Of a stretch of 64,000 bases of DNA, positions 3,397 through 17,248 are shown one piece after another (position 1 is the first letter of the stretch; every line of letters starts with the position of its first letter). Under the pieces are notes generated by a model. It ran no database searches. It worked only from the letters and a program-made list of their open reading frames with translations, and had not been told where the DNA came from. The DNA lies in the NCBI GenBank assembly GCA_000146465.1, contig CP001951.1, one strand, 5' to 3'. Position numbers and translations under genes: made by a program.

Positions 3397-4251
3397 ATGA
3401 AGAAGACCAATAAAAAGCCCAACGGAGGGAAATTCCGGAAGGAAAGTAGAATGGCTCGGCCTGACAAAAGAGGGGGGAGAGAAAGGATGAATAACAAGAA
3501 GAAGGGGAGTGTACGGGCCGGGCTTGATAAAAAGGTCTTAGTTGAGCCGCATAGGAGGTTTCCAGGGGTTTATGTTAGTCGGGGGAAGGAGGATCTTTTG
3601 CTTACAAAAAGCTTGGCACCAGGGATTAGCGTGTATGGAGAAAGGAGGATTACTGTTGATGTTGAGCAAGAAAGAATCGAGTATCGGGTCTGGAATGTTT
3701 ATCGAAGCAAGCTTGCAGCAGGAATTGTTTGTGGGGTTGAGAACATCCACATGGGCCCGGGAAGCAAAGTGTTGTATCTAGGGGCTTCATCCGGTACAAC
3801 GGTTTCCCATGTCTCGGACATTGTTGGGAAGGACGGAGTGGTGTATGCCGTGGAGTTCAGTGAAAGATCTGGAAGAGATTTGATCAACATGTCTATGAAG
3901 CGTCCCAACATCGTTCCGATAATAGAGGATGCAAGACATCCATCGAGATACAGAATGCTTGTGCCGATGGTTGACTGCATCTTTTCGGATGTTTCACAGC
4001 CCGACCAGACAAGAATTGTTGCCTTGAATGCCCAGTACTTCCTAAAGGAAGGAGGAGGAGTTGATGTGTCGATCAAGGCCAACTGTGTCAACTCGTCAGT
4101 CCCTGCAGAAACAGTCTTTGCAGAAGAGGTGAACATCCTGAGGAAGCACAACATCAAGCCAAAGGAGCAAGTGACTCTCGAGCCGTTTGAAAAGGACCAT
4201 GCAATGATAGTCGGGAAGTTTAGGCTGTCCAAGTCTGGAGAAAAGAAATAG
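3397..4251 (+). CDS. NOP1: fibrillarin (rRNA 2'-O-methyltransferase Nop1)
   Basis: Basic Arg/Lys-rich N-terminus followed by a fibrillarin methyltransferase core ([28 protein letters not shown]). Confidence 0.9.
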
Positions 4252-4345
4252 TTCCCCCAGGGAAACTCAAAAGCCCTGAAGATGAAATCAGACCTTCATA
4301 TCCAAATCTTTATTTTGACCAAATAAACGACCTAAAAGTATTATT

Positions 4346-5053
4346 TCACCATTTCATGGCAGTCTTCTTAGTTTTCTTGTCCGCCTTCTTTTCTACTCCA
4401 CAGGATTCCTCTTCAAGAATTCCATCGCTTTCTTCCAACTCGGCAACATATCTCTTCTTTCGATTCTGTTTCTTTTCTCTTTCTACTGCAGCCTTGTTTG
4501 CCAAATGGAATCTGTCCTTGAGCTCTGTCCCATAGATTCCACTCTCAAGCCTGAGCATGAGCTCGTCTCCTATGTTCTTCTCGAAGTTGATTTTGTTTAA
4601 AGTTTTGAGTGCTCGGAGCTTTTCTCTTCTATTCATCTTCTTTCTTCTCACCATATACTTTGTCTTCCCGTGCTCCTTGAAGCGCTCCAACCTTCGGAGA
4701 TACTGCGTGAGTTTCGAAAGCTTCTGCTTACATTTGTGGATAATCTTTTCATCCCAGAACTCAAGATTCTCTTCTATCTGCCTGAGAGCTTCTTCGTAGT
4801 TTGAAGACAGCTTGATCTCTTCGTAGACATCTCTAGGAACATGCACCCGCTCAGGCTCCTTGATAAACAGGAAAAGCTCTTCGCCCATTTCCCGGACTGT
4901 TGCATACTTCGAGTTGGCTAGTGGGCATGAAAATCTGTCGCACAACCCAGTTACATTGTTCTTGTTCCTGCACAGAGCGTTCTCTTCTGTCTTCATCTTG
5001 AACGAGCAATAGCCTTCTCCACCTATGTTCCTCCATATGCTCTCGTCGGACAT
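4346..5053 (-). CDS. MAK16: ribosome biogenesis protein MAK16
   Basis: N-terminal Mak16 signature CSFKMKTEENALCRNKNNVTGLCDRFSCPLANSKYATVRE; basic/acidic C-terminal tail. Confidence 0.85.
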   Translation of the reverse strand: MSDESIWRNIGGEGYCSFKMKTEENALCRNKNNVTGLCDRFSCPLANSKYATVREMGEELFLFIKEPERVHVPRDVYEEIKLSSNYEEALRQIEENLEFWDEKIIHKCKQKLSKLTQYLRRLERFKEHGKTKYMVRRKKMNRREKLRALKTLNKINFEKNIGDELMLRLESGIYGTELKDRFHLANKAAVEREKKQNRKKRYVAELEESDGILEEESCGVEKKADKKTKKTAMKW

Positions 5054-5114
5054 CTATCGTGGGTACTGGGTCATACAAATATTAACCGAATATAGACTCA
5101 AACATCCCATGCTG

Positions 5115-5849
5115 CTAAAGGGATGAAGAGAAGGGGTGGCTTCTCAAGTGCTTGAATAAAAACCCATCTGGAAATATCTCTGCTACACTAGTGATTCCAA
5201 ACTTCTCTAAGAGGTCGGCTAGCTTACTTCGGACTAAAAGATGTCCCTTGTGAAGTCTTCCCTTTATGTGCCTGTCTATCTTCACTTTTGTATCACTTAA
5301 AACTATGCCTGCTCCGCACACAGTGCATCTCCCCATCCCTTCTCCGTTGTTCTTTGCATAATATGCTTCCTTGATTCTTTCCAGCTCCCATTTTACCTTC
5401 TCGCATTCATCAAAGGCGTGGCACGCTTCCTCCACTTTTCCTTCCATCCCAAGCTGCTCGATACTTTCATAAAGCTTCTTGAACAACTCCTCCTTTTCTT
5501 TTATTCTCTCAAGCAGAGGAAGATCTGAAGTATCAGAAGCAGTGCATTTCTTGGCAACATTTCGAACATCCAAAACAATCTCAACAAGTAAACGAAGGAG
5601 CTCCCATTCATACTCTTCAGCCCTCTTTCTTCCATTTTTGTTGTATTCAGCCCGGTAATATTCCTCATGGTTACCATATCTGCACTTTCCAATGCTTCTT
5701 CTCGTGTTGCGGAACAACTCAAATGGGCAGAACGAAGCAAGCATGTATATGCAGGTGTCTCTCCTCTCCGAAGATAGCTTGTCAGGGTTGTAGATGTCTC
5801 TTTCCCGCCCAAGAAGCATGTCAAGAACTTCCCTTGCTCGATCTGTCAT
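5115..5849 (-). CDS. LUC7: U1 snRNP protein LUC7-like
   Basis: LUC7 architecture: LDMLLGRERD start, C/H zinc-finger-like motifs (CPFELF..CRYG..H; CTVCGA..HIKGRLH), coiled-coil middle. Confidence 0.7.
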   Translation of the reverse strand: MTDRAREVLDMLLGRERDIYNPDKLSSERRDTCIYMLASFCPFELFRNTRRSIGKCRYGNHEEYYRAEYNKNGRKRAEEYEWELLRLLVEIVLDVRNVAKKCTASDTSDLPLLERIKEKEELFKKLYESIEQLGMEGKVEEACHAFDECEKVKWELERIKEAYYAKNNGEGMGRCTVCGAGIVLSDTKVKIDRHIKGRLHKGHLLVRSKLADLLEKFGITSVAEIFPDGFLFKHLRSHPFSSSL

Positions 5850-7578: not shown

Positions 7579-9366
7579 CTACTCCAATGAAGAACTGCTC
7601 TGAAGTTCTCCCCTTAAGATTTTCAGCCCATATGTATTGAGCATTCTTATAGCATCTACTTCCTCACGGTTGCATCGGTCTGCATCCCATCTATGCTTCC
7701 TCTTGAATATCTCAAGAACTTTCCCAAGACACCGATAGGCCTCCTTTACATCTATAAGCCCAATCATCAGCCTGTTGCAGAGCACATCGCATATCCTGAC
7801 AGCCATCTCGTTGTCTATGCAGTACTCCACTTCTTCGACAAGGTAGGTGTATTTCTCTGATAGGTGATCTTTCTTCTTCCCCCTTCTTCTATACTTTGCA
7901 AGCTTCAAAGCCATTGTTCCGTAGAATCTCGTAAGCCTCTCTGCAGTATCCTTTCCCACCCCTAGTTTCCTTTGGATCGAGACATATGTGTCTTCGGAAT
8001 ACCCATCACTCCCAAGTATCTGAACATATTTCGTCACACAAGGGCCCTTTGGCTTCAATGAAAACTCTCGGATTGCCAAGTCTATGGCATCTTCTGCTAT
8101 TTTTCTATATATCGTCCACTTCCCTCCTGTGACCGTTAGAAGTCCATTCTTCTCAATCTTGACAAAATGCTTCCTAACAATAGAACTTGTTTCCGAAACC
8201 TCGTCATCTTTGACCAGCGGTCTTATTCCTGTCCAGATAGCAGAGACCTCGTCCTTGACCAGCTTTAGGCCCTGCGAAGTGTATGCCCTAACCTCATGCA
8301 TCAGAAACTTTAAATCCTCCTTTGTTGGAGATGGCGACAACTCATTCTTTGCCTTGATGTCCGTGGCCCCCACAAGAGTCTTCCCCATCCATGGCATGAA
8401 AAAGGCTATTCTGTTGTCTCCTGTAAGAGGGTCCAGAAACCCCATTTCCTTGGGTGCATATTCCTTTGGAATAACAATATGTGTTCCCGAACTCTGGGAT
8501 ATAATCTCTCCCGTGCTTGAATCGCTCTTCTTCCTTAGATCATCTGCAAAGCTGCCTGTGCTATTGATAACCCCAAGTCCCTTAATCTCCATTTCCGAGC
8601 CTGTAATCCCGTCTTTGCATCGAACTCCCGTAATCTTTCCACCCGAGCTTATCAAGGATTTCACAGACAGGTAGTTCGTTGCCACTGCTCCATGATAAAC
8701 TGCAGTCATCACTAGCATCACATTGTTTCGAACATCGTCTTGCTGCCCATCAAAATAAACCATTGCTCCACAAAGATTCTTCTTGTTGACATGAGGAAAT
8801 ACATCTATAGCCTCCTTCCTTCCAATAAAATAGCTTCCTCCCAATGATTTCAGCCCTGAGATCCAGTCATAGAGCTTCAGCCCAATGTAATAGTAAGGAA
8901 TAAGTATCCTGCTGTATACCGGAACCATTATCTTGATGCTATTTGTAAGATATGGCGATATTCTAAACATGGTACTTCTTTCTTCCAACGCTTGCCAAAC
9001 AAGCTTGTACTGAGACCAATCTAAGTTACTAACTGCACTTGCAAGATACCTTACTCCACCATGGACAAGCTTGGTCGATTTCGAACTAGTTCCTGACCCG
9101 AAGTCCCCTGCATCTACCAGAGCTACTTTCAGCCCCCTCGTTGCTCCGTCAAGGGCACATCCCGCCCCACTGCTCCCTGCACCAACTATGATCAGATCAA
9201 ACACCTCCGACCGAAGTCTCTCCATCATGGCCTCTCTTGTAGGCACCTCCCAGTTCTTGCAGGGCTTCCTGATGCATTTCAGCCTACCCATTACAAATAT
9301 CTTCTTGTAGAGATATCTGAAGGCCATAAGTACCGAAAGAAACAAAACCACCAGTGCAGCCAGCAT
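7579..9366 (-). CDS. GUT2: FAD-dependent glycerol-3-phosphate dehydrogenase (mitochondrial/mitosomal type)
   Basis: N-terminal TM helix, then FAD motif DLIIVGAGSSGAGCALDGATRGLKVALVDAGDFGSGTSSKSTKLVHGGVRYL. Confidence 0.85.
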   Translation of the reverse strand: MLAALVVLFLSVLMAFRYLYKKIFVMGRLKCIRKPCKNWEVPTREAMMERLRSEVFDLIIVGAGSSGAGCALDGATRGLKVALVDAGDFGSGTSSKSTKLVHGGVRYLASAVSNLDWSQYKLVWQALEERSTMFRISPYLTNSIKIMVPVYSRILIPYYYIGLKLYDWISGLKSLGGSYFIGRKEAIDVFPHVNKKNLCGAMVYFDGQQDDVRNNVMLVMTAVYHGAVATNYLSVKSLISSGGKITGVRCKDGITGSEMEIKGLGVINSTGSFADDLRKKSDSSTGEIISQSSGTHIVIPKEYAPKEMGFLDPLTGDNRIAFFMPWMGKTLVGATDIKAKNELSPSPTKEDLKFLMHEVRAYTSQGLKLVKDEVSAIWTGIRPLVKDDEVSETSSIVRKHFVKIEKNGLLTVTGGKWTIYRKIAEDAIDLAIREFSLKPKGPCVTKYVQILGSDGYSEDTYVSIQRKLGVGKDTAERLTRFYGTMALKLAKYRRRGKKKDHLSEKYTYLVEEVEYCIDNEMAVRICDVLCNRLMIGLIDVKEAYRCLGKVLEIFKRKHRWDADRCNREEVDAIRMLNTYGLKILRGELQSSSSLE

Positions 9367-9540
9367 CTATGGGCACGAACTCCTTCTTCTCTCTTATACT
9401 TCCGGACATCCAATTACTGGTTGACAGGTACAGAGACAAACAAGTATTTCAAGCCTCCTATGAAGAGGCCAATAAAACCGGGTTCGATTGGTCTTCTATC
9501 CCTCTACTGCAAATAAAAAAATTCCTAGAGGCCTTTGCAG

Positions 9541-10464
9541 ATGGAAGGAATCAGGTTTGCTGATGTGCTACAATCCTTTGAAAAGAAAACAGAAGATGGC
9601 GAATATGTGAGTGTGGAAAGAGATTACAACGAAAGAAAGGTGATAGAAAACGATGTCAAGCGCACAGAGCTGCTGGGTGTGGACAAGAGGAATCAGGAGG
9701 CAATTAAGATTCTGAAGAGGCTGCTTTTTGTGGAGCTAGACAAGATTCCAGTTAAGTACACACAGGGGATGAGTGAGGTTGCGTCTGTGTTTGTCCTCTA
9801 CTACTTTCAGGAAATTGTTGAGGAAGAAGTGGCCAAGGGAATGTTTATCGCCGAGCGGGAAGAGAAGCCTGAGGGAGAAGCTTCGACGGCGGAAGGCTTT
9901 TCGGAGCATTTTATTGAGCTACCTGAAGAGGAAACCACAGAGCTTAAGAAATTTCTTTCAAGGCACAAGGACATAATAGCCAAGCTTGGGGTGGTGCTTA
10001 CAAACGTGTTCAAAAGAAAGCTGGAGCCATTAGTTGCAAACGACTTCAAGCTGTACAAGGAGAATATGAAGATATTTGTGGAGATGATGAAGAAGCGGGG
10101 AGTGAAGATTCCAGAGCTGGAAAGCTACAAGTTCATGGGATCTATTCTGACGTTTTTCTTAAGAAACCTGACGAAGATGGAGGATGTCCACAAGGTGTTT
10201 GAAATAATCTTGTCATGTCCCAACACCTGCCCGTTTCTTTTGTTAGTACTTTTTTATGGCCAGATCTCGAGTGGCAAGGCTATAGAGAGTATAAATAACA
10301 AGCTGTTCCCGAAGGTGGTTAAGCTTGAGGAAGAGTTTATTGAGACTCGGAAAAGAATCGAAAGCAAGGAGGTTTGCCCTTCAAAAAGGAAAATCATGCT
10401 GATAGGCGGAGTTATTAGTATAATCACCGCGGTTGTTGTGTATAAGATAACAAGAAAGGAATAA
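9541..10464 (+). CDS. TBC-domain Rab GTPase-activating protein with C-terminal TM anchor (TBC1D20/Gyp8-like)
   Basis: Arg-finger DVKRTE and Gln-finger YTQGMSEV motifs; C-terminal hydrophobic anchor. Track start 9535 is TTG; first ATG is at 9541. Confidence 0.5.
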   Translation: MEGIRFADVLQSFEKKTEDGEYVSVERDYNERKVIENDVKRTELLGVDKRNQEAIKILKRLLFVELDKIPVKYTQGMSEVASVFVLYYFQEIVEEEVAKGMFIAEREEKPEGEASTAEGFSEHFIELPEEETTELKKFLSRHKDIIAKLGVVLTNVFKRKLEPLVANDFKLYKENMKIFVEMMKKRGVKIPELESYKFMGSILTFFLRNLTKMEDVHKVFEIILSCPNTCPFLLLVLFYGQISSGKAIESINNKLFPKVVKLEEEFIETRKRIESKEVCPSKRKIMLIGGVISIITAVVVYKITRKE

Positions 10465-10512
10465 AGCCTTTTTCTCAAGTGCTGTTTGTCTTATAAACAA
10501 AAGAATTTTGTA

Positions 10513-10957
10513 TGTATCAAGCCATGGCGGGTAGACAAAAATCAAATCAAGTTGACACCATTATTTAATCCCAAGAGTCTTGTCAATCTCCTCTGCAAAG
10601 TACTTCTCCACAAGCGCCCTTTTCTTCTTCGCTGTCGGCGTAAGCAGATCCGCGCCCTCAAAACTCTCAAACCCACGCCGCAGCACAACAACCTTCGACG
10701 GAATCTCAAGCCTCGTGATCCTCCTCTGCTTCACCAGCTTCTCTCCAACCTCCCGCAGGTGCTCCATAATCTCCTTCTCACTCCTCTTCTCGTCAGGACA
10801 CACAACAATCGCAATTATCCTCTCGCTCTCAGACCTCCGTGGAATAAACACATCCTGTATAATGTCTCCGTCAATGTACAGCGTCTCAAGCTTCTCAGGG
10901 TCAATGTACTCCCCCTGTGCAGTCTTGAATCCATCCTTCAGATGCCCAATCCCAGAA
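10513..10957. repeat. left arm of ~440-bp inverted repeat (copy of ACSL 3' end + 45 bp 3' flank)
   Basis: Reverse complement of 10513..10957 matches 14470..14909 with about 3 mismatches. Confidence 0.85.
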
Positions 10958-12651
10958 ATCACCTTACTTATAGATATAGCCAAAATATCATCCGCATAGC
11001 TGCTCTTCCATTCAAGTATAACCTCCTGTCCAGACAGCTTGACATGGATGTTTCCAATCATAAGCCCAGACTCCACCTCAACAAGCTCCTCAAACCCATC
11101 CATAAGCACTTGCTTCAACAATACCCCTGTCGAGTTGTATGGGATCCTTTGCCTCTCGTATATGCTCATCTCCTTGTATTTAGATTCCATCAAATCGTCT
11201 CTCTTGTATATCCTAATGTCGTTCTCTGTCCCTACGATAATCCCCTCAAATTCCCCCTCAGCATTGGTAAATATTTTAGCCTCATTATCCTTGACTAGAT
11301 CAAATCCTGCCTCTTCTCCATTCCGTAGAGTATAAAGCTCCATCTCAATCCCTTTCTTTTCGTTTCTCTGCTGAATCACATTCCTGAGTCTCTGCATCTC
11401 ATTCATCTCTCCATGCACAAAGAAGAGGTGCCGAGGTTGGCATTCTTCAATGAACTGGCTATTTTGTGTAAAATCCACATGCGCACTGAATGAGATGTAT
11501 TCCACCGACATGTTAAGCCGAAGCCTCTTTCCATTCAACGCCTCTATCTCCTTGGGCTCGCTGAGTATCTCCTTTGCAAGTGTTCCGTCTACACAGTATC
11601 CAGGTATTATCACGGCATTCTTACTGTCCGAACACCATCGCTCAAAGAGATCTCTTGAAAGCCCGCTCTGCAGCATTCCCGGGCTGGCCATGATCACACA
11701 TGGACCCTCATCATCAAAAGAGTCTATTCCCTTCAGATTCTTGACATATTTGAATGCAAACGGGTTTCGGACCAAGCTTAGTTTTTGAATCCTCTCGTTC
11801 ATCATTCCTATGTAGGTCTGATATACCCCCATACACCTTTTTGCCAATGCAGATGCATAGTAGATTGGGATCTTCTGCAGAGAAGCATTTGAGCTCCAAT
11901 GTTCCTCAAGAATAAGAAGAAGCTCCTGTGCCCTTCCAAGAGCAAACACCGGAAGTAGACATCTCCCCCCTCTTTGAACAACATTCTGAACAATGCTTGT
12001 AAATCGGCCCTCCCTCTCTGATCTCGGAAGATGGCATTGCACTCCATATGTCGATTCCGTTATAAGTGCATCGATTTTGCATCCAGGAGACTCTGCAGCC
12101 TTAAGATGTCTGTCTTCTTCCCTACTGAAATCCCCGGTATAAAGAATCTTGCTCTTCTCTATTTCAACCAAAAACATGGCTGCCCCTAGTACATGCCCTG
12201 CATTCAATGCCTTAACCTTAATCCCCTTCACATTGACTTCTTGATGGTAATCGATAGGTATGATTCTGTCGTAGCATTTAACCAGGTCTGTTTCGGTGTA
12301 GAAGTCTGCATCCGATGCTGCATTGATCAGCCGGATATAATCGTTCAGAAGCCATTTAAGAATGGCCTTTGTAGGATGTGTCATATAAACCTTTCCTTTG
12401 AAGCTTGTCTTTTCCGTTAGAAACGGCAGTGCCGCTGCATGGTCTAGGTGGAAGTGTGTAACAAATATGGCATCGATCTTCGAAAGATCTACAAGATCCA
12501 GAAAAGGAAGGGATGCCACGCCGGTGTATGCCGGATGAACCCCGCAGTCCAGCATTATAGTCCTGCCCCCACACTCGACAATAACGCATGATCTTCCAAC
12601 TTCGTTTCCTGCCCCAAGAGGCATCACTTTTATCTTCTCGCTAGAGAACAT
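10561..12651 (-). CDS. YSH1: cleavage and polyadenylation specificity factor 73 kDa (CPSF73/Ysh1; MBL + beta-CASP) with chimeric C-terminal 126 aa copied from acyl-CoA synthetase
   Basis: HFHLDHAAALP metallo-beta-lactamase motif; beta-CASP and HGE motifs. The last 126 codons are identical to the end of ORF 12799..14868 apart from 2 substitutions. Confidence 0.8.
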   Translation of the reverse strand: MFSSEKIKVMPLGAGNEVGRSCVIVECGGRTIMLDCGVHPAYTGVASLPFLDLVDLSKIDAIFVTHFHLDHAAALPFLTEKTSFKGKVYMTHPTKAILKWLLNDYIRLINAASDADFYTETDLVKCYDRIIPIDYHQEVNVKGIKVKALNAGHVLGAAMFLVEIEKSKILYTGDFSREEDRHLKAAESPGCKIDALITESTYGVQCHLPRSEREGRFTSIVQNVVQRGGRCLLPVFALGRAQELLLILEEHWSSNASLQKIPIYYASALAKRCMGVYQTYIGMMNERIQKLSLVRNPFAFKYVKNLKGIDSFDDEGPCVIMASPGMLQSGLSRDLFERWCSDSKNAVIIPGYCVDGTLAKEILSEPKEIEALNGKRLRLNMSVEYISFSAHVDFTQNSQFIEECQPRHLFFVHGEMNEMQRLRNVIQQRNEKKGIEMELYTLRNGEEAGFDLVKDNEAKIFTNAEGEFEGIIVGTENDIRIYKRDDLMESKYKEMSIYERQRIPYNSTGVLLKQVLMDGFEELVEVESGLMIGNIHVKLSGQEVILEWKSSYADDILAISISKVISGIGHLKDGFKTAQGEYIDPEKLETLYIDGDIIQDVFIPRRSESERIIAIVVCPDEKRSEKEIMEHLREVGEKLVKQRRITRLEIPSKVVVLRRGFESFEGADLLTPTAKKKRALVEKYFAEEIDKTLGIK

Positions 12652-12798
12652 TCTAGGGCGATCAGAGCAAGTTGAATTTCTTGCAACTGGTTTCTTTCAG
12701 AATAAAAGATAAATGTAGAAGTCTATTCATATTAATGAATAGTATTACTATAAGCAGTAAATTGGAAACTATATAATAATAAATGTTATACAATTAGG

Positions 12799-14868
12799 AT
12801 GGGAACAATCAGGTTTATATCTATAATCTCTTTTCTTAGTGATATGATGATTTGGTGCATTGATGGACCTGGTAAAGAAGCCAAGGATAATCTTAAGGCT
12901 CCTCTATTGACAAGTGATAATAAGCCCAATGATTTTAAGGCATCACCTATTCCATGTAGTGAAAGTACCGTTAGAATGTCTCGTTTCAAGGATATGATGA
13001 ACAGAATAAGGATTATGGAAGATGGATCTGTGCAACACGTCAACTTCCAGAGAGATGTTGTGTGTACCCCAGACGGCTCAAAAACCATCCTCGAGCTCCT
13101 TCTCTCGCGCTGTGCAACAATGGGCAACGAGCCCTTCCTCGGCACAATCGTCGGCAACAAGGTCAAGTACAAGACTGCAAACGACATCCGCAGAGAGGCA
13201 GAGGGCCTTGCCTCGTTCCTGGCACAGACCACAAGCCCCGGAGACATGGTGGGCATCTACTCTGTCAACAGATACGAGTGGATAGTTGCCGAGATGGCAA
13301 CTTACATGTGCGGATGCACCAATGTCCCCCTGTACTCCATGTTCTCGCCCGAGAACGTCCAGATGATTCTGAAGGAGACGGGGATGAAGGTGTGTGTTGC
13401 GTCTCGGGAAAAGGCCGAGCAGCTGGTTGAGACTGTGCTGGAGGGCAGGGAGACGATGCTCGAGCACATTGTGCTGATGGACAAGGCGCCCGAGCTGGTG
13501 GCGAGGCTTGAGAATGCCGGGCTGCGGGGACATTACCTCAAGGAAGTGATTTCTCATCGGGGAGGGATAACCAAGGAAAGGTACTCGAAGGGGGAGGATC
13601 TTGCAACGATATGCTATACAAGCGGGACATCTGGGTGTCCCAAGGGGGTGATGCTGACACACCGGAACTTTATCTCTGGGGTTTCTGGGATATTCCGTGG
13701 GTCTCGGAAGGAAGAGATGGTGTCTCTTGACAAGGAGGATGTGTATCTGTCGTACCTGCCGCTAGCACATGTGATGGAGAGGATATGTGTCAACATCTCG
13801 ATGGCATATGGGTGCAAGATAGTGTTCTACAGGGGGAACATGAAGGAGATCAAGGAGGACTATCTTGTGGCGAAGCCGACATTTATTATTTCTGTGCCGC
13901 GGGTGCTGAATCTGTTCAAGGACAAGATTGAGGAGAAGGTGAGGCAGAAGAACTTTGTGCTGCGATGGATTTTCCGGGGGGCCCTCCGGTACAAGATGTG
14001 GAGAGTGGGGCGAGGAGAGCTGAAGAGCAAGTTTGCAGACTGGCTTGTGTTCAACAGGATTGCAAAGGAGTTTGGAGGGCGGATTTCGCGGATTCTGTGT
14101 GGGTCTGCACCTCTTCGGAAGGAAGTTCTGGTGTACATGCAGGCTGTGCTCTCGTGCCGGATTATCCAAGGATATGGGCAGACGGAGAATGTAGGGTCGG
14201 GGATTGTGCAGCCGCTGGACACGAACCTGTACGACAATGTTGGGATTCCCTTTCCGTCGAACGAGGTGAAGCTTGGAGAGATACCAGCGGAGCTTGGGAG
14301 CGAGTATGGGCGCCGGTATCCTGGAAGGAAGTTTGGAGAGATTCTGTTGCGCGGGGACAATGTGACGCAGGGGTACTTCAAGAGGCCTGAGGAGACGGCG
14401 GAGCTGTTTACTAAGGACGGGTGGCTCCGGACGGGGGACATTGGGATGTTTGATGTGTCGACGGGGATGTTTTCTGTGATTGGGCGTCTGAAGGATGGAT
14501 TCAAGACTGCACAGGGGGAGTACATTGACCCTGAGAAGCTTGAGACGCTGTACATTGACGGAGACATTATACAGGATGTGTTTATTCCACGGAGGTCTGA
14601 GAGCGAGAGGATAATTGCGATTGTTGTGTGTCCTGACGAGAAGAAGAGTGAGAAGGAGATTATGGAGCACCTGCGGGAGGTTGGAGAGAAGCTGGTGAAG
14701 CAGAGGAGGATCACGAGGCTTGAGATTCCGTCGAAGGTTATTGTGCTGCGGCGTGGGTTTGAGAGTTTTGAGGGCGCGGATCTGCTTACGCCGACAGCGA
14801 AGAAGAAAAGGGCGCTTGTGGAGAAGTACTTTGCAGAGGAGATTGACAAGACTCTTGGGATTAAATAA
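12799..14868 (+). CDS. long-chain fatty-acid-CoA ligase (acyl-CoA synthetase, AMP-binding family)
   Basis: AMP-binding motifs YTSGTSGCPKGV, GYGQTEN, GWLRTGDIG. The first ~85 codons are AT-rich and hydrophobic. The remainder is GC-rich with CGN/GGG codons. Confidence 0.85.
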   Translation: MGTIRFISIISFLSDMMIWCIDGPGKEAKDNLKAPLLTSDNKPNDFKASPIPCSESTVRMSRFKDMMNRIRIMEDGSVQHVNFQRDVVCTPDGSKTILELLLSRCATMGNEPFLGTIVGNKVKYKTANDIRREAEGLASFLAQTTSPGDMVGIYSVNRYEWIVAEMATYMCGCTNVPLYSMFSPENVQMILKETGMKVCVASREKAEQLVETVLEGRETMLEHIVLMDKAPELVARLENAGLRGHYLKEVISHRGGITKERYSKGEDLATICYTSGTSGCPKGVMLTHRNFISGVSGIFRGSRKEEMVSLDKEDVYLSYLPLAHVMERICVNISMAYGCKIVFYRGNMKEIKEDYLVAKPTFIISVPRVLNLFKDKIEEKVRQKNFVLRWIFRGALRYKMWRVGRGELKSKFADWLVFNRIAKEFGGRISRILCGSAPLRKEVLVYMQAVLSCRIIQGYGQTENVGSGIVQPLDTNLYDNVGIPFPSNEVKLGEIPAELGSEYGRRYPGRKFGEILLRGDNVTQGYFKRPEETAELFTKDGWLRTGDIGMFDVSTGMFSVIGRLKDGFKTAQGEYIDPEKLETLYIDGDIIQDVFIPRRSESERIIAIVVCPDEKKSEKEIMEHLREVGEKLVKQRRITRLEIPSKVIVLRRGFESFEGADLLTPTAKKKRALVEKYFAEEIDKTLGIK

Positions 14869-14909
14869 TGGTGTCAACTTGATTTGATTTTTGTCTACCC
14901 GCCATGGCT
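14470..14909. repeat. right arm of inverted repeat (native ACSL 3' end)
   Basis: See left arm. The repeat spans the last 126 codons, the stop codon and ~45 bp downstream. Confidence 0.85.
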
Positions 14910-14941
14910 CTGATAATTTTTGTCTACCTTAAAACCCTGAA

Positions 14942-17248
14942 ATGGAAAATTCGTTGAATAGCAAAAGAGTCAAATCGGAGAAGCTTAAAATAGATATGGT
15001 CCGAGGCCAAATAGAAGAATACACCAATCTTCTCAAGCTCCAACATGTAAATGTCGATGAGCTGATGGAAAAGATAGCGTCTGGATGGTGCGAAGACATG
15101 ACCAGAAAGGAAATTGTAGATTACTGTAGTGAAACCGCAGCCTCGATGATCACCAAACATCCTGAGTATGGATGGATCTCGTCCCGAATCATTGTCTCAT
15201 ATATCCACGATATCACCATGGATTCTTTTGTTGAAAAGATCAAATACATACAAAAGTACCAGGGAACGATTTCTGAAGAGATGTACAAGATAATAGTGGA
15301 GAATGCAGAAATAATTGATTCGATTATAGACTACGAAAAAGATTTCCTTTTCAACTACTTTGGAATACTTACCTTGATGAAATCTTATCTGATAAAGGTG
15401 GGGGAGGAGATTGTTGAAAGACCCCAGGATGTATTTATGAGGACAGCCCTTCAAGTCCATAAGTCTGACTTTGGGAAGGTCAAGGAGACATATGAAATGC
15501 TGTCAAGACACTACTTTACCCATGCAACACCGACCTTGTACAATTCATGTCTCAAGGAAGCACAATTGGCCAGCTGTTTTCTCATAACACCTCGGGAAGA
15601 TTCGATTGAGGGGGTATACCACATGATCAACCAAACGGCAATTATAACTAAGTACTCTGGGGGCATAGGACTCAATCTTCATGGGATTAGGTCGAAGGGA
15701 AGCCCTCTGAAAAGAACTGGGGGAAAGAGTAATGGAATCATTCCGCTGATCCAGGTTTTGAATGCCACAAAGAGATACATCAATCAGGGTGCCGAAAGAA
15801 GACCCGGGTCGATAGCCATTTATCTTGAGCCTTGGCATATGGAGATATTTGACTTTCTGGACCTTAGGAAGAACACAGGCCCTGAGGAATTCCGGGCAAG
15901 GGACATCTTCATTGCACTATGGATCAACGATCTATTTATGGAAAGGGTCAAGAACAATGAGGAATGGTCGTTGTTTTGCCCTAGCCAGGCTGTTGGGCTG
16001 AATGAGACATGGGGAGAGGAGTTCAATGCCTTGTACTGCAAGTACGAGAAGACAATCAGCAGGACGGTGGTTCCTGCGCAAAAGTTGTGGAAGGCCATAA
16101 TCGAGGCGCAGATCGAAACCGGAACACCTTACATGTGTTATAAGGATGCATGCAACAGACTTAGCAATCAGCAGCATCTTGGAACTATTAAATCATCGAA
16201 CCTTTGTGCAGAGATAGTTGAATATTCCTCTGGAGAAGAGACCTCGGTGTGTAATCTTGGATCTATTTCTCTTCCTATGTTTGTCAAGAACAAGAAGTTT
16301 GACTTTGAATCTCTTAAAGACGTGGTCCGGATACTTACAATCAACCTCAACAAGGTGATCGACTTCAACTACTATCCTGTGGAAGAGTCCAAGAGATCGA
16401 ATATGAAGCACCGGCCGATCGGAATAGGAGTGCAGGGTCTAGCAGATTTGTTTGCAATTCTAAGGCTTCCGTTTGATAGCGATGAGGCCCGTAATCTGAA
16501 CAAAGACATCTTTGAGACGATGTACTATTCGGCACTGGAGACCTCGTGCAAGTTGGCCGAGAAAGAGGGGCCGTTTGAGTCATATGAAGGATCTCCCATA
16601 AGTAAAGGGATCTTTCACTTTGAGCTGGCAGGCAAGAAGGCTTCCAACAACTGGGACTGGGAAGGGCTTCGGGAAAGAATTAAGAAGTATGGAACCCGGA
16701 ATAGCCTTCTGATTGCGCTAATGCCGACTGCAGGAACGTCGCAGATCTTTGGAAACAACGAGACATTTGAGCCGTTCATATCGAACATATATACCAGGAG
16801 AACACATGCTGGGGAATTTCAGATTGTTAATAAACATCTGATTAACGATCTTTCCGAGCTGGGGCTGTGGTCATATGAGATGAAGAACCTGATTATTGAA
16901 AACGAAGGATCTATCCAGAACATCACAACGATTCCAAAAAAGATCAGAGACATATACAAGACAGCATGGGAAATAAAGATGAAGGCTGTGATAGACCTGG
17001 CGGCGGATAGACAGGTGTTTGTTGACCAATCGCAGTCTTTGAACGTCTTTGTGGCAAAGCCGACCTACTCACAGCTCACATCGATGCACTTCTACGGATA
17101 TCATTGCGGTCTGAAGACGGGAATGTACTATTTGAGAACAAGGCCGATAACATCTGCAATCAAGTTTACAGTGGACAAGAAGCTTGCAGAGAAAACCTTA
17201 TCCTCCATGAATGATACGGACGAGCCCTGTTCGATGTGCTCCTCTTGA
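14942..17248 (+). CDS. RNR1: ribonucleoside-diphosphate reductase large subunit (R1)
   Basis: N-terminal ATP-cone; catalytic motifs SNLCAEI, PTAGTSQI; C-terminal CSMC redox tail. Confidence 0.9.
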   Translation: MENSLNSKRVKSEKLKIDMVRGQIEEYTNLLKLQHVNVDELMEKIASGWCEDMTRKEIVDYCSETAASMITKHPEYGWISSRIIVSYIHDITMDSFVEKIKYIQKYQGTISEEMYKIIVENAEIIDSIIDYEKDFLFNYFGILTLMKSYLIKVGEEIVERPQDVFMRTALQVHKSDFGKVKETYEMLSRHYFTHATPTLYNSCLKEAQLASCFLITPREDSIEGVYHMINQTAIITKYSGGIGLNLHGIRSKGSPLKRTGGKSNGIIPLIQVLNATKRYINQGAERRPGSIAIYLEPWHMEIFDFLDLRKNTGPEEFRARDIFIALWINDLFMERVKNNEEWSLFCPSQAVGLNETWGEEFNALYCKYEKTISRTVVPAQKLWKAIIEAQIETGTPYMCYKDACNRLSNQQHLGTIKSSNLCAEIVEYSSGEETSVCNLGSISLPMFVKNKKFDFESLKDVVRILTINLNKVIDFNYYPVEESKRSNMKHRPIGIGVQGLADLFAILRLPFDSDEARNLNKDIFETMYYSALETSCKLAEKEGPFESYEGSPISKGIFHFELAGKKASNNWDWEGLRERIKKYGTRNSLLIALMPTAGTSQIFGNNETFEPFISNIYTRRTHAGEFQIVNKHLINDLSELGLWSYEMKNLIIENEGSIQNITTIPKKIRDIYKTAWEIKMKAVIDLAADRQVFVDQSQSLNVFVAKPTYSQLTSMHFYGYHCGLKTGMYYLRTRPITSAIKFTVDKKLAEKTLSSMNDTDEPCSMCSS

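Follow-up and report, generated by a model that had tools for sequence, protein, structure and literature searches.

The analyzed window is a 64,000-nt (64-kb) stretch of contig CP001951.1 (GenBank assembly GCA_000146465.1), in which a GC-rich island covers a putative acyl-CoA synthetase gene (ACSL). The protein encoded by this gene is identical to ADM12411.1 from Encephalitozoon intestinalis ATCC 50506 and to UTX46243.1, which is copy A in the telomere-to-telomere (T2T) assembly. Pfam identifies an AMP-binding domain (PF00501) over residues 122-527 with E = 7e-69 (232.9 bits against a cut-off of 29.9), and the names of the best homologues in the source databases point to a long-chain acyl-CoA synthetase.

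Gene organization of the palindrome

The T2T assembly of strain ATCC 50506 (GCA_024399295.1, CP075167.1; locus record L001; PMC12697097) was used as the reference; it was among the E. intestinalis records retrieved by an exact match to the neighbouring ribonucleotide reductase protein. Self-comparison of this record reveals a 1,927-bp inverted duplication, with copies at 3780-5705 and 8048-9974 that are 99.69% identical and enclose a 2,342-bp spacer. The genes are arranged as RabGAP(+), ACSL of 689 residues(-), CPSF73 of 643 residues(+), ACSL of 623 residues(+), and ribonucleotide reductase (RNR)(+). We refer to the 689-residue form as copy A and to the ACSL gene that follows CPSF73 as copy B. 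CPSF73, which carries the Pfam domains Beta-Casp, Lactamase_B, RMMBL, and CPSF73-100_C, occupies the palindrome spacer. In three T2T chromosomes (L001, L012, and L015), the locus sits 45-49% of the way along the chromosome.

One complete arm is present in the window, and the GC-rich island is exactly this arm (Table 1). It contains the 623-codon ACSL core (ATG at 12997, stop at 14868) with 8 nt of upstream and 47 nt of downstream sequence. The earlier note on this DNA placed the end of the island at an inverted-repeat arm, and the island does coincide with the full repeat unit. The note missed that the converting partner is a local, full-length inverted copy, most of which is absent from the window. 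No repeat of at least 60 nt other than the ACSL inverted repeat is found in the window.

Table 1. Features of the ACSL locus in the window (positions refer to the 64,000-nt stretch)
Feature	Position	Strand	Basis or remark
Complete ACSL palindrome arm, the GC-rich island	12989..14915	+	Matches both inverted L001 copies
ACSL copy A ORF, 689 residues	12799..14868	+	Pfam PF00501
Copy-A N-terminal leader	12799..12988	+	Outside repeat, AT-rich
Divergent intergenic region, CPSF73/ACSL copy A	12652..12798	.	GC 0.272
Genuine CPSF73, approximately codons 1-569 of 643	10962..12651	-	Pfam domains; collinear with L001 6043-7750
Stub of second (RabGAP-side) ACSL arm	10515..10961	-	Inverted repeat; collinear with L001 3780-4223
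RabGAP-TBC gene, left single-copy flank	9541..10464	+	Gene tables; GC 0.431, GC3 0.55
RNR large subunit, right single-copy flank	14942..17248	+	Pfam; GC 0.438, GC3 0.53
Antisense ORF, 371 residues	13762..14877	-	ORF listing; overlaps 13860-14849
Antisense ORF, 329 residues	13860..14849	-	ORF listing
ORF, open reading frame; GC3, GC content at third codon positions.

Composition of the island

The arm has a GC content of 0.529, compared with an average of 0.437 (standard deviation 0.017, maximum 0.488) for other 1,927-nt windows. A 1-kb scan of the whole stretch yields values of 0.534 and 0.509 for the two segments between 13001 and 15000, and 0.398-0.483 elsewhere. At 200-nt resolution, GC content climbs from 0.28 (12700-12899) to 0.515-0.59 within ACSL and falls to 0.375 at 14800-14999. 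GC3 of the ACSL core is 0.68 (z = 4.5), while the 42 other ORFs of at least 150 codons span 0.40-0.57; over the entire ACSL ORF it is 0.65. Arginine is encoded by CGN codons at 27 of 50 positions, against about 20% in the other ORFs. These values bear out the island of GC-rich codons described in the earlier note, as well as its abrupt onset within the ORF. The onset is not at codon 85, however, but at nt 12989 (codons 64-67), where GC3 steps from 0.29 in the leader (overall GC 0.363) to 0.68 in the first 63 core codons. The leader itself, the AT-rich first ~190 nt, lies outside the converted unit and has local composition, in keeping with the native origin that had been proposed for it.

The anomaly consists mostly of third-position G in place of A. 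Relative to the 42 other ORFs, the E. intestinalis core has a third-position G/(A+G) of 0.81 (z = 4.8) and a C/(C+T) of 0.50 (z = 0.9).

The two long antisense ORFs that had been noticed within the island are present (Table 1). A Pfam search of both identifies no family at E ≤ 0.1, and we set them aside as genes and treat them as by-products of the GC-rich, purine-rich sense strand. A further 270-residue ORF at 10486-11298 (+) runs antisense to the ACSL stub and CPSF73. Its portion over the stub is an almost exact repeat of the N-terminal part of the antisense ORF at 13762-14877, because both derive from the same repeated sequence, and it is most likely not a gene.

A truncated arm and a chimeric CPSF73 in the window

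The second arm is represented in the window by a stub only. Positions 10520-10961 and 14468-14909 form an inverted repeat of 442 nt that is 99% complementary. The 442-nt stub comprises the last ~127 ACSL codons and 3' flank, and is joined in frame to CPSF73 at approximately codon 569. The resulting ORF, 10515-12651 (-), encodes 696 residues that combine CPSF73 codons 1 to ~569 with the end of ACSL. GC3 is 0.63 in the stub part of this ORF and 0.48 in the remainder. Thus, the anomalous composition that had been ascribed to the CPSF73 tail is real, but the tail is not genuine CPSF73; it is the stub of the second ACSL copy.

With respect to L001, the window is missing 1,779 bp, which comprise the greater part of the RabGAP-side arm, the final 224 nt of CPSF73, and the short piece of spacer beyond it. 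The spacer orientation is also opposite to that in the T2T ATCC 50506 record. The chimeric junction (10944-10961) falls at a shared 8-mer microhomology (GCCCAATC), and the stub carries two private A-to-G differences that occur in no other arm. A look-up of the 696-residue product returned no record of it. CPSF73 is 643 residues long in each Encephalitozoon record that includes it (contig L003 begins within the repeat and does not) and 641-644 residues long in Ordospora and in the microsporidian L018, which is known from a public sequencing run. The 2010 genome was assembled with Velvet (k = 19) from 31-bp reads, and finishing relied on nested PCR, cloning, and Sanger sequencing (PMC4355639). 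The chimeric CPSF73 and the loss of ~1.8 kb are probably a PCR, cloning, or assembly-finishing artefact of this reference. The window, which would be part of the 2010 reference, shows one ACSL gene and a chimeric CPSF73; for the same strain, the T2T assembly gives two ACSL genes and an uninterrupted CPSF73 of 643 residues. Expression figures reported on such a reference for "the" ACSL gene (Eint_100850) are therefore the sum of two genes.

Conservation of the palindrome and concerted evolution of its arms

Nine genome records from four Encephalitozoon species were compared. In addition to E. intestinalis, these represent E. cuniculi (GB-M1, EcunIII-L, and ATCC 50602 T2T), E. hellem (ATCC 50504, ATCC 50604 T2T, and GCA_029215505.1), and E. 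romaleae. All four species have two inverted ACSL copies around CPSF73, placed between RabGAP and RNR. Across the nine records, arm length ranges from 1,926 to 1,947 bp and the spacer measures ~2.3 kb. The repeat boundaries agree to ~20 nt among the species, and the start codons of copy A and CPSF73 are separated by 145-148 nt in each of them. Arm-to-arm identity within a genome is 99.69-100% over all nine records (99.79-100% outside E. intestinalis). Between species, identity of this segment drops to 75-82%. Arms that are at least 99.7% alike within genomes, yet diverge to this extent between species, indicate concerted evolution. Given the conserved architecture, boundaries, and arm identity, the parsimonious account is one duplication in the common ancestor and concerted evolution thereafter.

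Variation within species leads to the same view. Both arms share the strain's own allele at columns 637, 1019, 1099, and 1285 in E. cuniculi and at columns 318, 472, and 779 in E. hellem. Most of the arm-to-arm differences in E. intestinalis, and several of those in the other species, lie within about 35 nt of the repeat edges. Judging from these alignments, the arms have evidently been homogenized again and again by arm-to-arm gene conversion, and the strain-specific alleles argue that conversion continues within species.

In E. hellem GCA_029215505.1, the copy A arm (L013, 7182-9127) has four private differences within 146 nt (columns 76-221). All four occur on this arm only and replace a weak base (W, A or T) with a strong one (S, G or C), in the order A to G, T to C, A to G, and T to C. 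This clustering resembles a short tract introduced by conversion or recombination from an unsampled allele.

Outside Encephalitozoon, Ordospora colligata, O. pajunii, and L018 each have one ACSL gene in the order CPSF73(+), ACSL(+), RNR(+). A tblastn search of Ordospora for traces of the leader or of another ACSL copy returned none, and L018 likewise has neither a second copy nor a remnant. A metagenome scan for additional close relatives gave matches at 25-30% identity only. We found no prior description of the palindrome, or of GC-biased gene conversion (gBGC) at the ACSL locus, in a literature search of an incomplete library. The repeat screen in the T2T paper applied a minimum bit score of 5,000 (PMC12697097); we estimate ~3,500 bits for a 1.9-kb match, so the palindrome would fall below this threshold.

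Two isomers of the spacer

The spacer exists in both orientations among chromosome-length records (L001, L012, L013, and L015), including the two E. hellem records. Copy B adjoins RNR in the T2T assemblies of E. intestinalis 50506 and E. hellem 50604, which is the arrangement that retains the Ordospora order. It adjoins RabGAP in E. hellem GCA_029215505.1 and ATCC 50504, in all E. cuniculi records, and in E. romaleae. The edge variants of E. intestinalis are partitioned accordingly: those at the outer edge stay with the flank and those at the inner edge stay with the spacer end, as expected because a crossover inverts the spacer. Taken together, the two isomers and the edge variants argue strongly that the spacer is flipped by occasional crossover between the inverted arms. 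Short-read SPAdes assemblies (L002 and L017) were not used to assign orientation; 151-bp paired reads are too short to phase a 1.9-kb repeat, and the T2T reference had guided how their contigs were oriented and merged (PMC12697097).

GC excess in the four Encephalitozoon species

The GC3 excess of ACSL is a feature of all four species examined that have the palindrome (Table 2). Fisher p values for the four Encephalitozoon shifts range from 1e-12 to 1e-20, and four-fold degenerate sites follow the same pattern. Restricting the comparison to the 261 codons that specify one and the same amino acid in all six species gives a GC3 of 0.704 for Encephalitozoon and 0.479 for Ordospora. Every 40-codon bin shows the excess (+0.10 to +0.37), with the lowest values in the bins at either end of the gene. 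GC content at first and second positions is also raised, as is the share of Gly, Ala, Arg, and Pro residues. Across the repeat boundary, GC3 of the copy A ORF rises from 0.29-0.42 in the leader to 0.67-0.76 inside the repeat. Nearby genes do not share the shift. GC3 is ordinary both in CPSF73, within the palindrome, and in the genes lying 0.1-8 kb beyond its ends, and no enrichment is found in the neighbouring L28e, fibrillarin, and UBC genes, which are likely highly expressed.

Table 2. Third-position GC content of ACSL and neighbouring genes
Species	ACSL region	ACSL GC3	Neighbour GC3	Difference
E. intestinalis	Core	0.684	0.517 (pooled)	log-odds +0.70
E. cuniculi	Core	0.762	0.608 (pooled)	log-odds +0.72
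E. hellem	Core	0.689	0.541 (pooled)	log-odds +0.63
E. romaleae	Core	0.658	0.459 (pooled)	log-odds +0.82
O. colligata	Single copy	0.459	0.427	log-odds +0.13, not significant
O. pajunii	Single copy	0.534	0.531	log-odds +0.01, not significant
L018	Single copy	0.681	0.664±0.053 (per-gene mean)	z ≈ 0.3

The log-odds shift is nearly constant over backgrounds of 0.46-0.61, which is what is expected of a fixed bias on the ratio of W-to-S and S-to-W substitutions. By our own arithmetic, a shift of this size translates into a population-scaled bias of roughly 0.6-0.8.

Probable GC-biased conversion of the arms

The inverted second copy and the GC3 data make gBGC between the palindrome arms the best explanation of the island that we have found, and probably the right one. 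Conversion of this kind between ACSL paralogs was among the options raised in the earlier note. In the proposed sequence of events, the ancestral single-copy order would have been CPSF73, ACSL, RNR, and one duplication in the Encephalitozoon ancestor would have produced the palindrome. Since then, arm-to-arm conversion has homogenized both ACSL copies, and crossovers have flipped the spacer. Mismatch repair that favours G/C during conversion would drive the arms toward GC and would yield a constant GC3 excess of ~0.6-0.8 log-odds above any local background. The leader would keep its AT-rich local composition because it lies outside the repeat. There are precedents for such an effect: in E. cuniculi, the chromosome ends, which are repeated and recombine, likewise have a raised GC content of ~60% (PMC4704409), and primate X palindromes have arm GC above that of their flanks, which has been attributed to gBGC (PMC8981503). 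Faster protein evolution, a possible effect of gBGC, is not seen for ACSL. Its between-species identity of 0.71-0.79 is within the range of DAO, RabGAP, and other neighbours, and its relative rate is the same in Ordospora.

Several observations weigh against this interpretation. Both the palindrome and the GC excess have a single origin, on one and the same branch, and the contrast of four lineages with three therefore amounts to one event. The repeat is nearly coextensive with the gene (8 nt upstream and 47-56 nt downstream), so that an effect bounded by the repeat and one bounded by the gene are not fully separable. The 3' non-coding part of the arm, at a GC content of 0.37-0.45, is marginally above typical intergenic sequence. 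Simple gBGC predicts equal shifts at purine and pyrimidine sites, yet the Encephalitozoon log-odds are +1.2 to +1.6 for third-position G/(A+G) and 0 to +0.4 for C/(C+T). Expressed as fractions, G/(A+G) is 0.81-0.91 against a background of 0.54-0.68 (z = 5-9), and C/(C+T) is 0.46-0.56 against 0.38-0.54 (z = 0-2). Polarized strain differences, which are too few for statistical power, show W-to-S and S-to-W changes at 7:5 in the arms and 32:40 in the flanks and spacer. These counts come from strains, since synonymous sites are saturated between species at 75-82% nucleotide identity. Lastly, in Ordospora, the sister genus, a published phastBias scan of single-copy genes detected no gBGC tracts (PMC6944219).

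The single-copy ACSL orthologues (L008, L009, and L018) have more third-position G and less C than their neighbours, a skew that is intrinsic to the gene. In these three lineages the log-odds are approximately +0.3 to +0.5 at purine sites and -0.3 to -0.4 at pyrimidine sites. Adding a symmetric boost of 0.6-1.0 to this baseline fits the Encephalitozoon values approximately; purines need ~1.0-1.2 and pyrimidines ~0.4-0.8. The intrinsic excess of G over C on the sense strand thus accounts for much of the asymmetry, but not all of it. Relative to the leader, both purine and pyrimidine classes rise strongly. A strand-specific contribution to the ACSL shift, from transcription-associated mutation or codon selection, may therefore exist alongside gBGC.

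Alternative explanations

The main rival assigns the whole anomaly to a gene- and strand-specific bias acting on ACSL, either transcription-associated mutation from A to G on the non-template strand or selection favouring codons that end in G, for instance because of high expression, and regards the palindrome as incidental. We consider it unlikely, though it retains an appreciable chance. The purine/pyrimidine asymmetry described above is what such a bias would leave on the sense strand, a weaker skew of the same sign is found in single-copy ACSL of three lineages, and the near-identity of repeat and gene borders suits it equally well. Nevertheless, the single-copy orthologues have no net GC3 excess. 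In the copy-A leader, third-position G/(A+G) of 0.44-0.52 and GC3 of 0.29-0.42 are at or below background. The frame of the leader is conserved in all four species, which suggests that it is part of the copy-A mRNA, and a transcription-linked bias should therefore have reached it. CPSF73, directly upstream of copy B, is not enriched either, nor are the nearby ribosomal-protein, fibrillarin, and UBC genes. Moreover, a single-cell RNA sequencing study describes no more than a "slight increase" in ACSL expression, in one cluster (PMC11972355).

It is less probable still that the elevated GC content is older than the palindrome or regional in nature. The palindrome does lie at 45-49% of chromosome length, and GC content is highest near the centre of E. 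cuniculi chromosome cores (PMC4704409). Jackson et al. also reported that recent gBGC could not explain all of the GC excess of X palindromes (PMC8981503). Against this, the genes within 1-8 kb on either side and CPSF73 inside the palindrome have ordinary GC3, which confines the effect to the arms, and ACSL is not enriched over its neighbours in the three lineages that lack the palindrome. A relation of this mid-chromosomal inverted-repeat unit to chromosomal function, for example as a centromere, is rated very improbable, because the arms and spacer are ordinary genes and Ordospora does without the palindrome.

The reading suggested in the earlier note, a gene body recently acquired or horizontally transferred and fused to a native leader, has only the atypical composition of ACSL for the locus in its favour and is rejected as extremely unlikely: homologue identity follows the species tree (70-73% in Encephalitozoon, 55-56% in Ordospora, 46-48% in Nosema/Vairimorpha, then other microsporidia and fungi), none of the best matches is bacterial or host-like, the CPSF73-ACSL-RNR synteny is kept in Ordospora and L018, the composition is common to orthologues in four congeners, and protein divergence is ordinary relative to neighbouring genes. 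On these grounds, ACSL is vertically inherited. A subtelomeric paralog family, the other origin that had been considered, is rejected with it, since the locus is in the middle of the chromosome and the window has no further repeat of 60 nt or more.

The copy-A leader

Copy A has 48-67 codons upstream of the repeat, with the frame open in all four species. The leader begins with MG-x-(I/V)-(R/K), continues with ~20 hydrophobic residues (Kyte-Doolittle 19-residue maximum of 1.62-2.27), and ends in a polar linker of low conservation. The single-copy orthologues lack the leader, and a Pfam search of it gives no match. We infer that it is coding and constitutes a signal-anchor-like N-terminus recruited from former intergenic DNA. 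The palindrome may thus encode a membrane-anchored copy A and a non-anchored copy B with identical catalytic cores.

Comparison with known palindromes

The features of the ACSL palindrome place it, as far as can be judged from genome comparison, among arm-conversion palindromes of a kind already known elsewhere. Human Y palindrome P6 (PMC3723533) and the primate X palindromes (PMC8981503) likewise have inverted arms of more than 99% identity around a unique spacer. In these mammalian sex-chromosome systems, as here, the structure is conserved while the sequence diverges through arm-to-arm conversion, the arms are GC-richer, and spacer inversions occur (PMC3723533, PMC8981503). The ACSL locus differs in being smaller by one to three orders of magnitude, with 1.9-kb arms that are each essentially one gene, and in its location on an ordinary chromosome core of a 2.3-2.6 Mb microsporidian genome (PMC4355639, PMC12697097). 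Its spacer carries the conserved single-copy CPSF73. Unlike the mammalian cases, the composition shift is strand-asymmetric, and gBGC is read here from composition rather than from individual conversion events.

The abstract on Caenorhabditis long inverted-repeat gene pairs (PMC1803023) describes near-perfect, actively maintained repeats whose structure is more conserved than their sequence, as in Encephalitozoon. A GC effect is not mentioned in that abstract, whereas the ACSL arms are GC-rich; they also flank an unrelated third gene, and one copy has gained an N-terminal extension. Within the genus, the EXT/SUB chromosome-end blocks of E. cuniculi are recombining repeats that are GC-richer than the single-copy core (PMC4704409). 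The EXT/SUB blocks are located subtelomerically on several chromosomes and extend over tens of kb, while the ACSL repeat is a two-copy, intrachromosomal, mid-core element containing a housekeeping enzyme gene. Plastid inverted repeats (PMC4524490, PMC5713276) also consist of copies kept identical by conversion around a segment found in both orientations, and GC-biased conversion has been proposed for plastid genomes. The ACSL locus is nuclear, and its arms are much shorter.

Implications

The locus illustrates that a strong codon-usage island can stem from local concerted evolution of a native gene, and that composition alone is not evidence of horizontal transfer. Recombination and its frequency in Encephalitozoon are poorly known, and evidence for gBGC in this clade is sparse. 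With arms that differ measurably, a spacer in two isomers, and a GC excess of known size, the palindrome shared by all four species examined offers a concrete locus at which to measure the rate and bias of conversion. Tentatively, and with somewhat more doubt than confidence, we picture the palindrome as an ongoing recombination hotspot, in which the arms would convert frequently enough to remove their differences within the time of strain divergence, conversion would be GC-biased, the spacer would flip, and an anchored and a soluble ACSL would be kept catalytically identical. If this is true, the palindrome would be a natural reporter of recombination in the smallest eukaryotic genomes.

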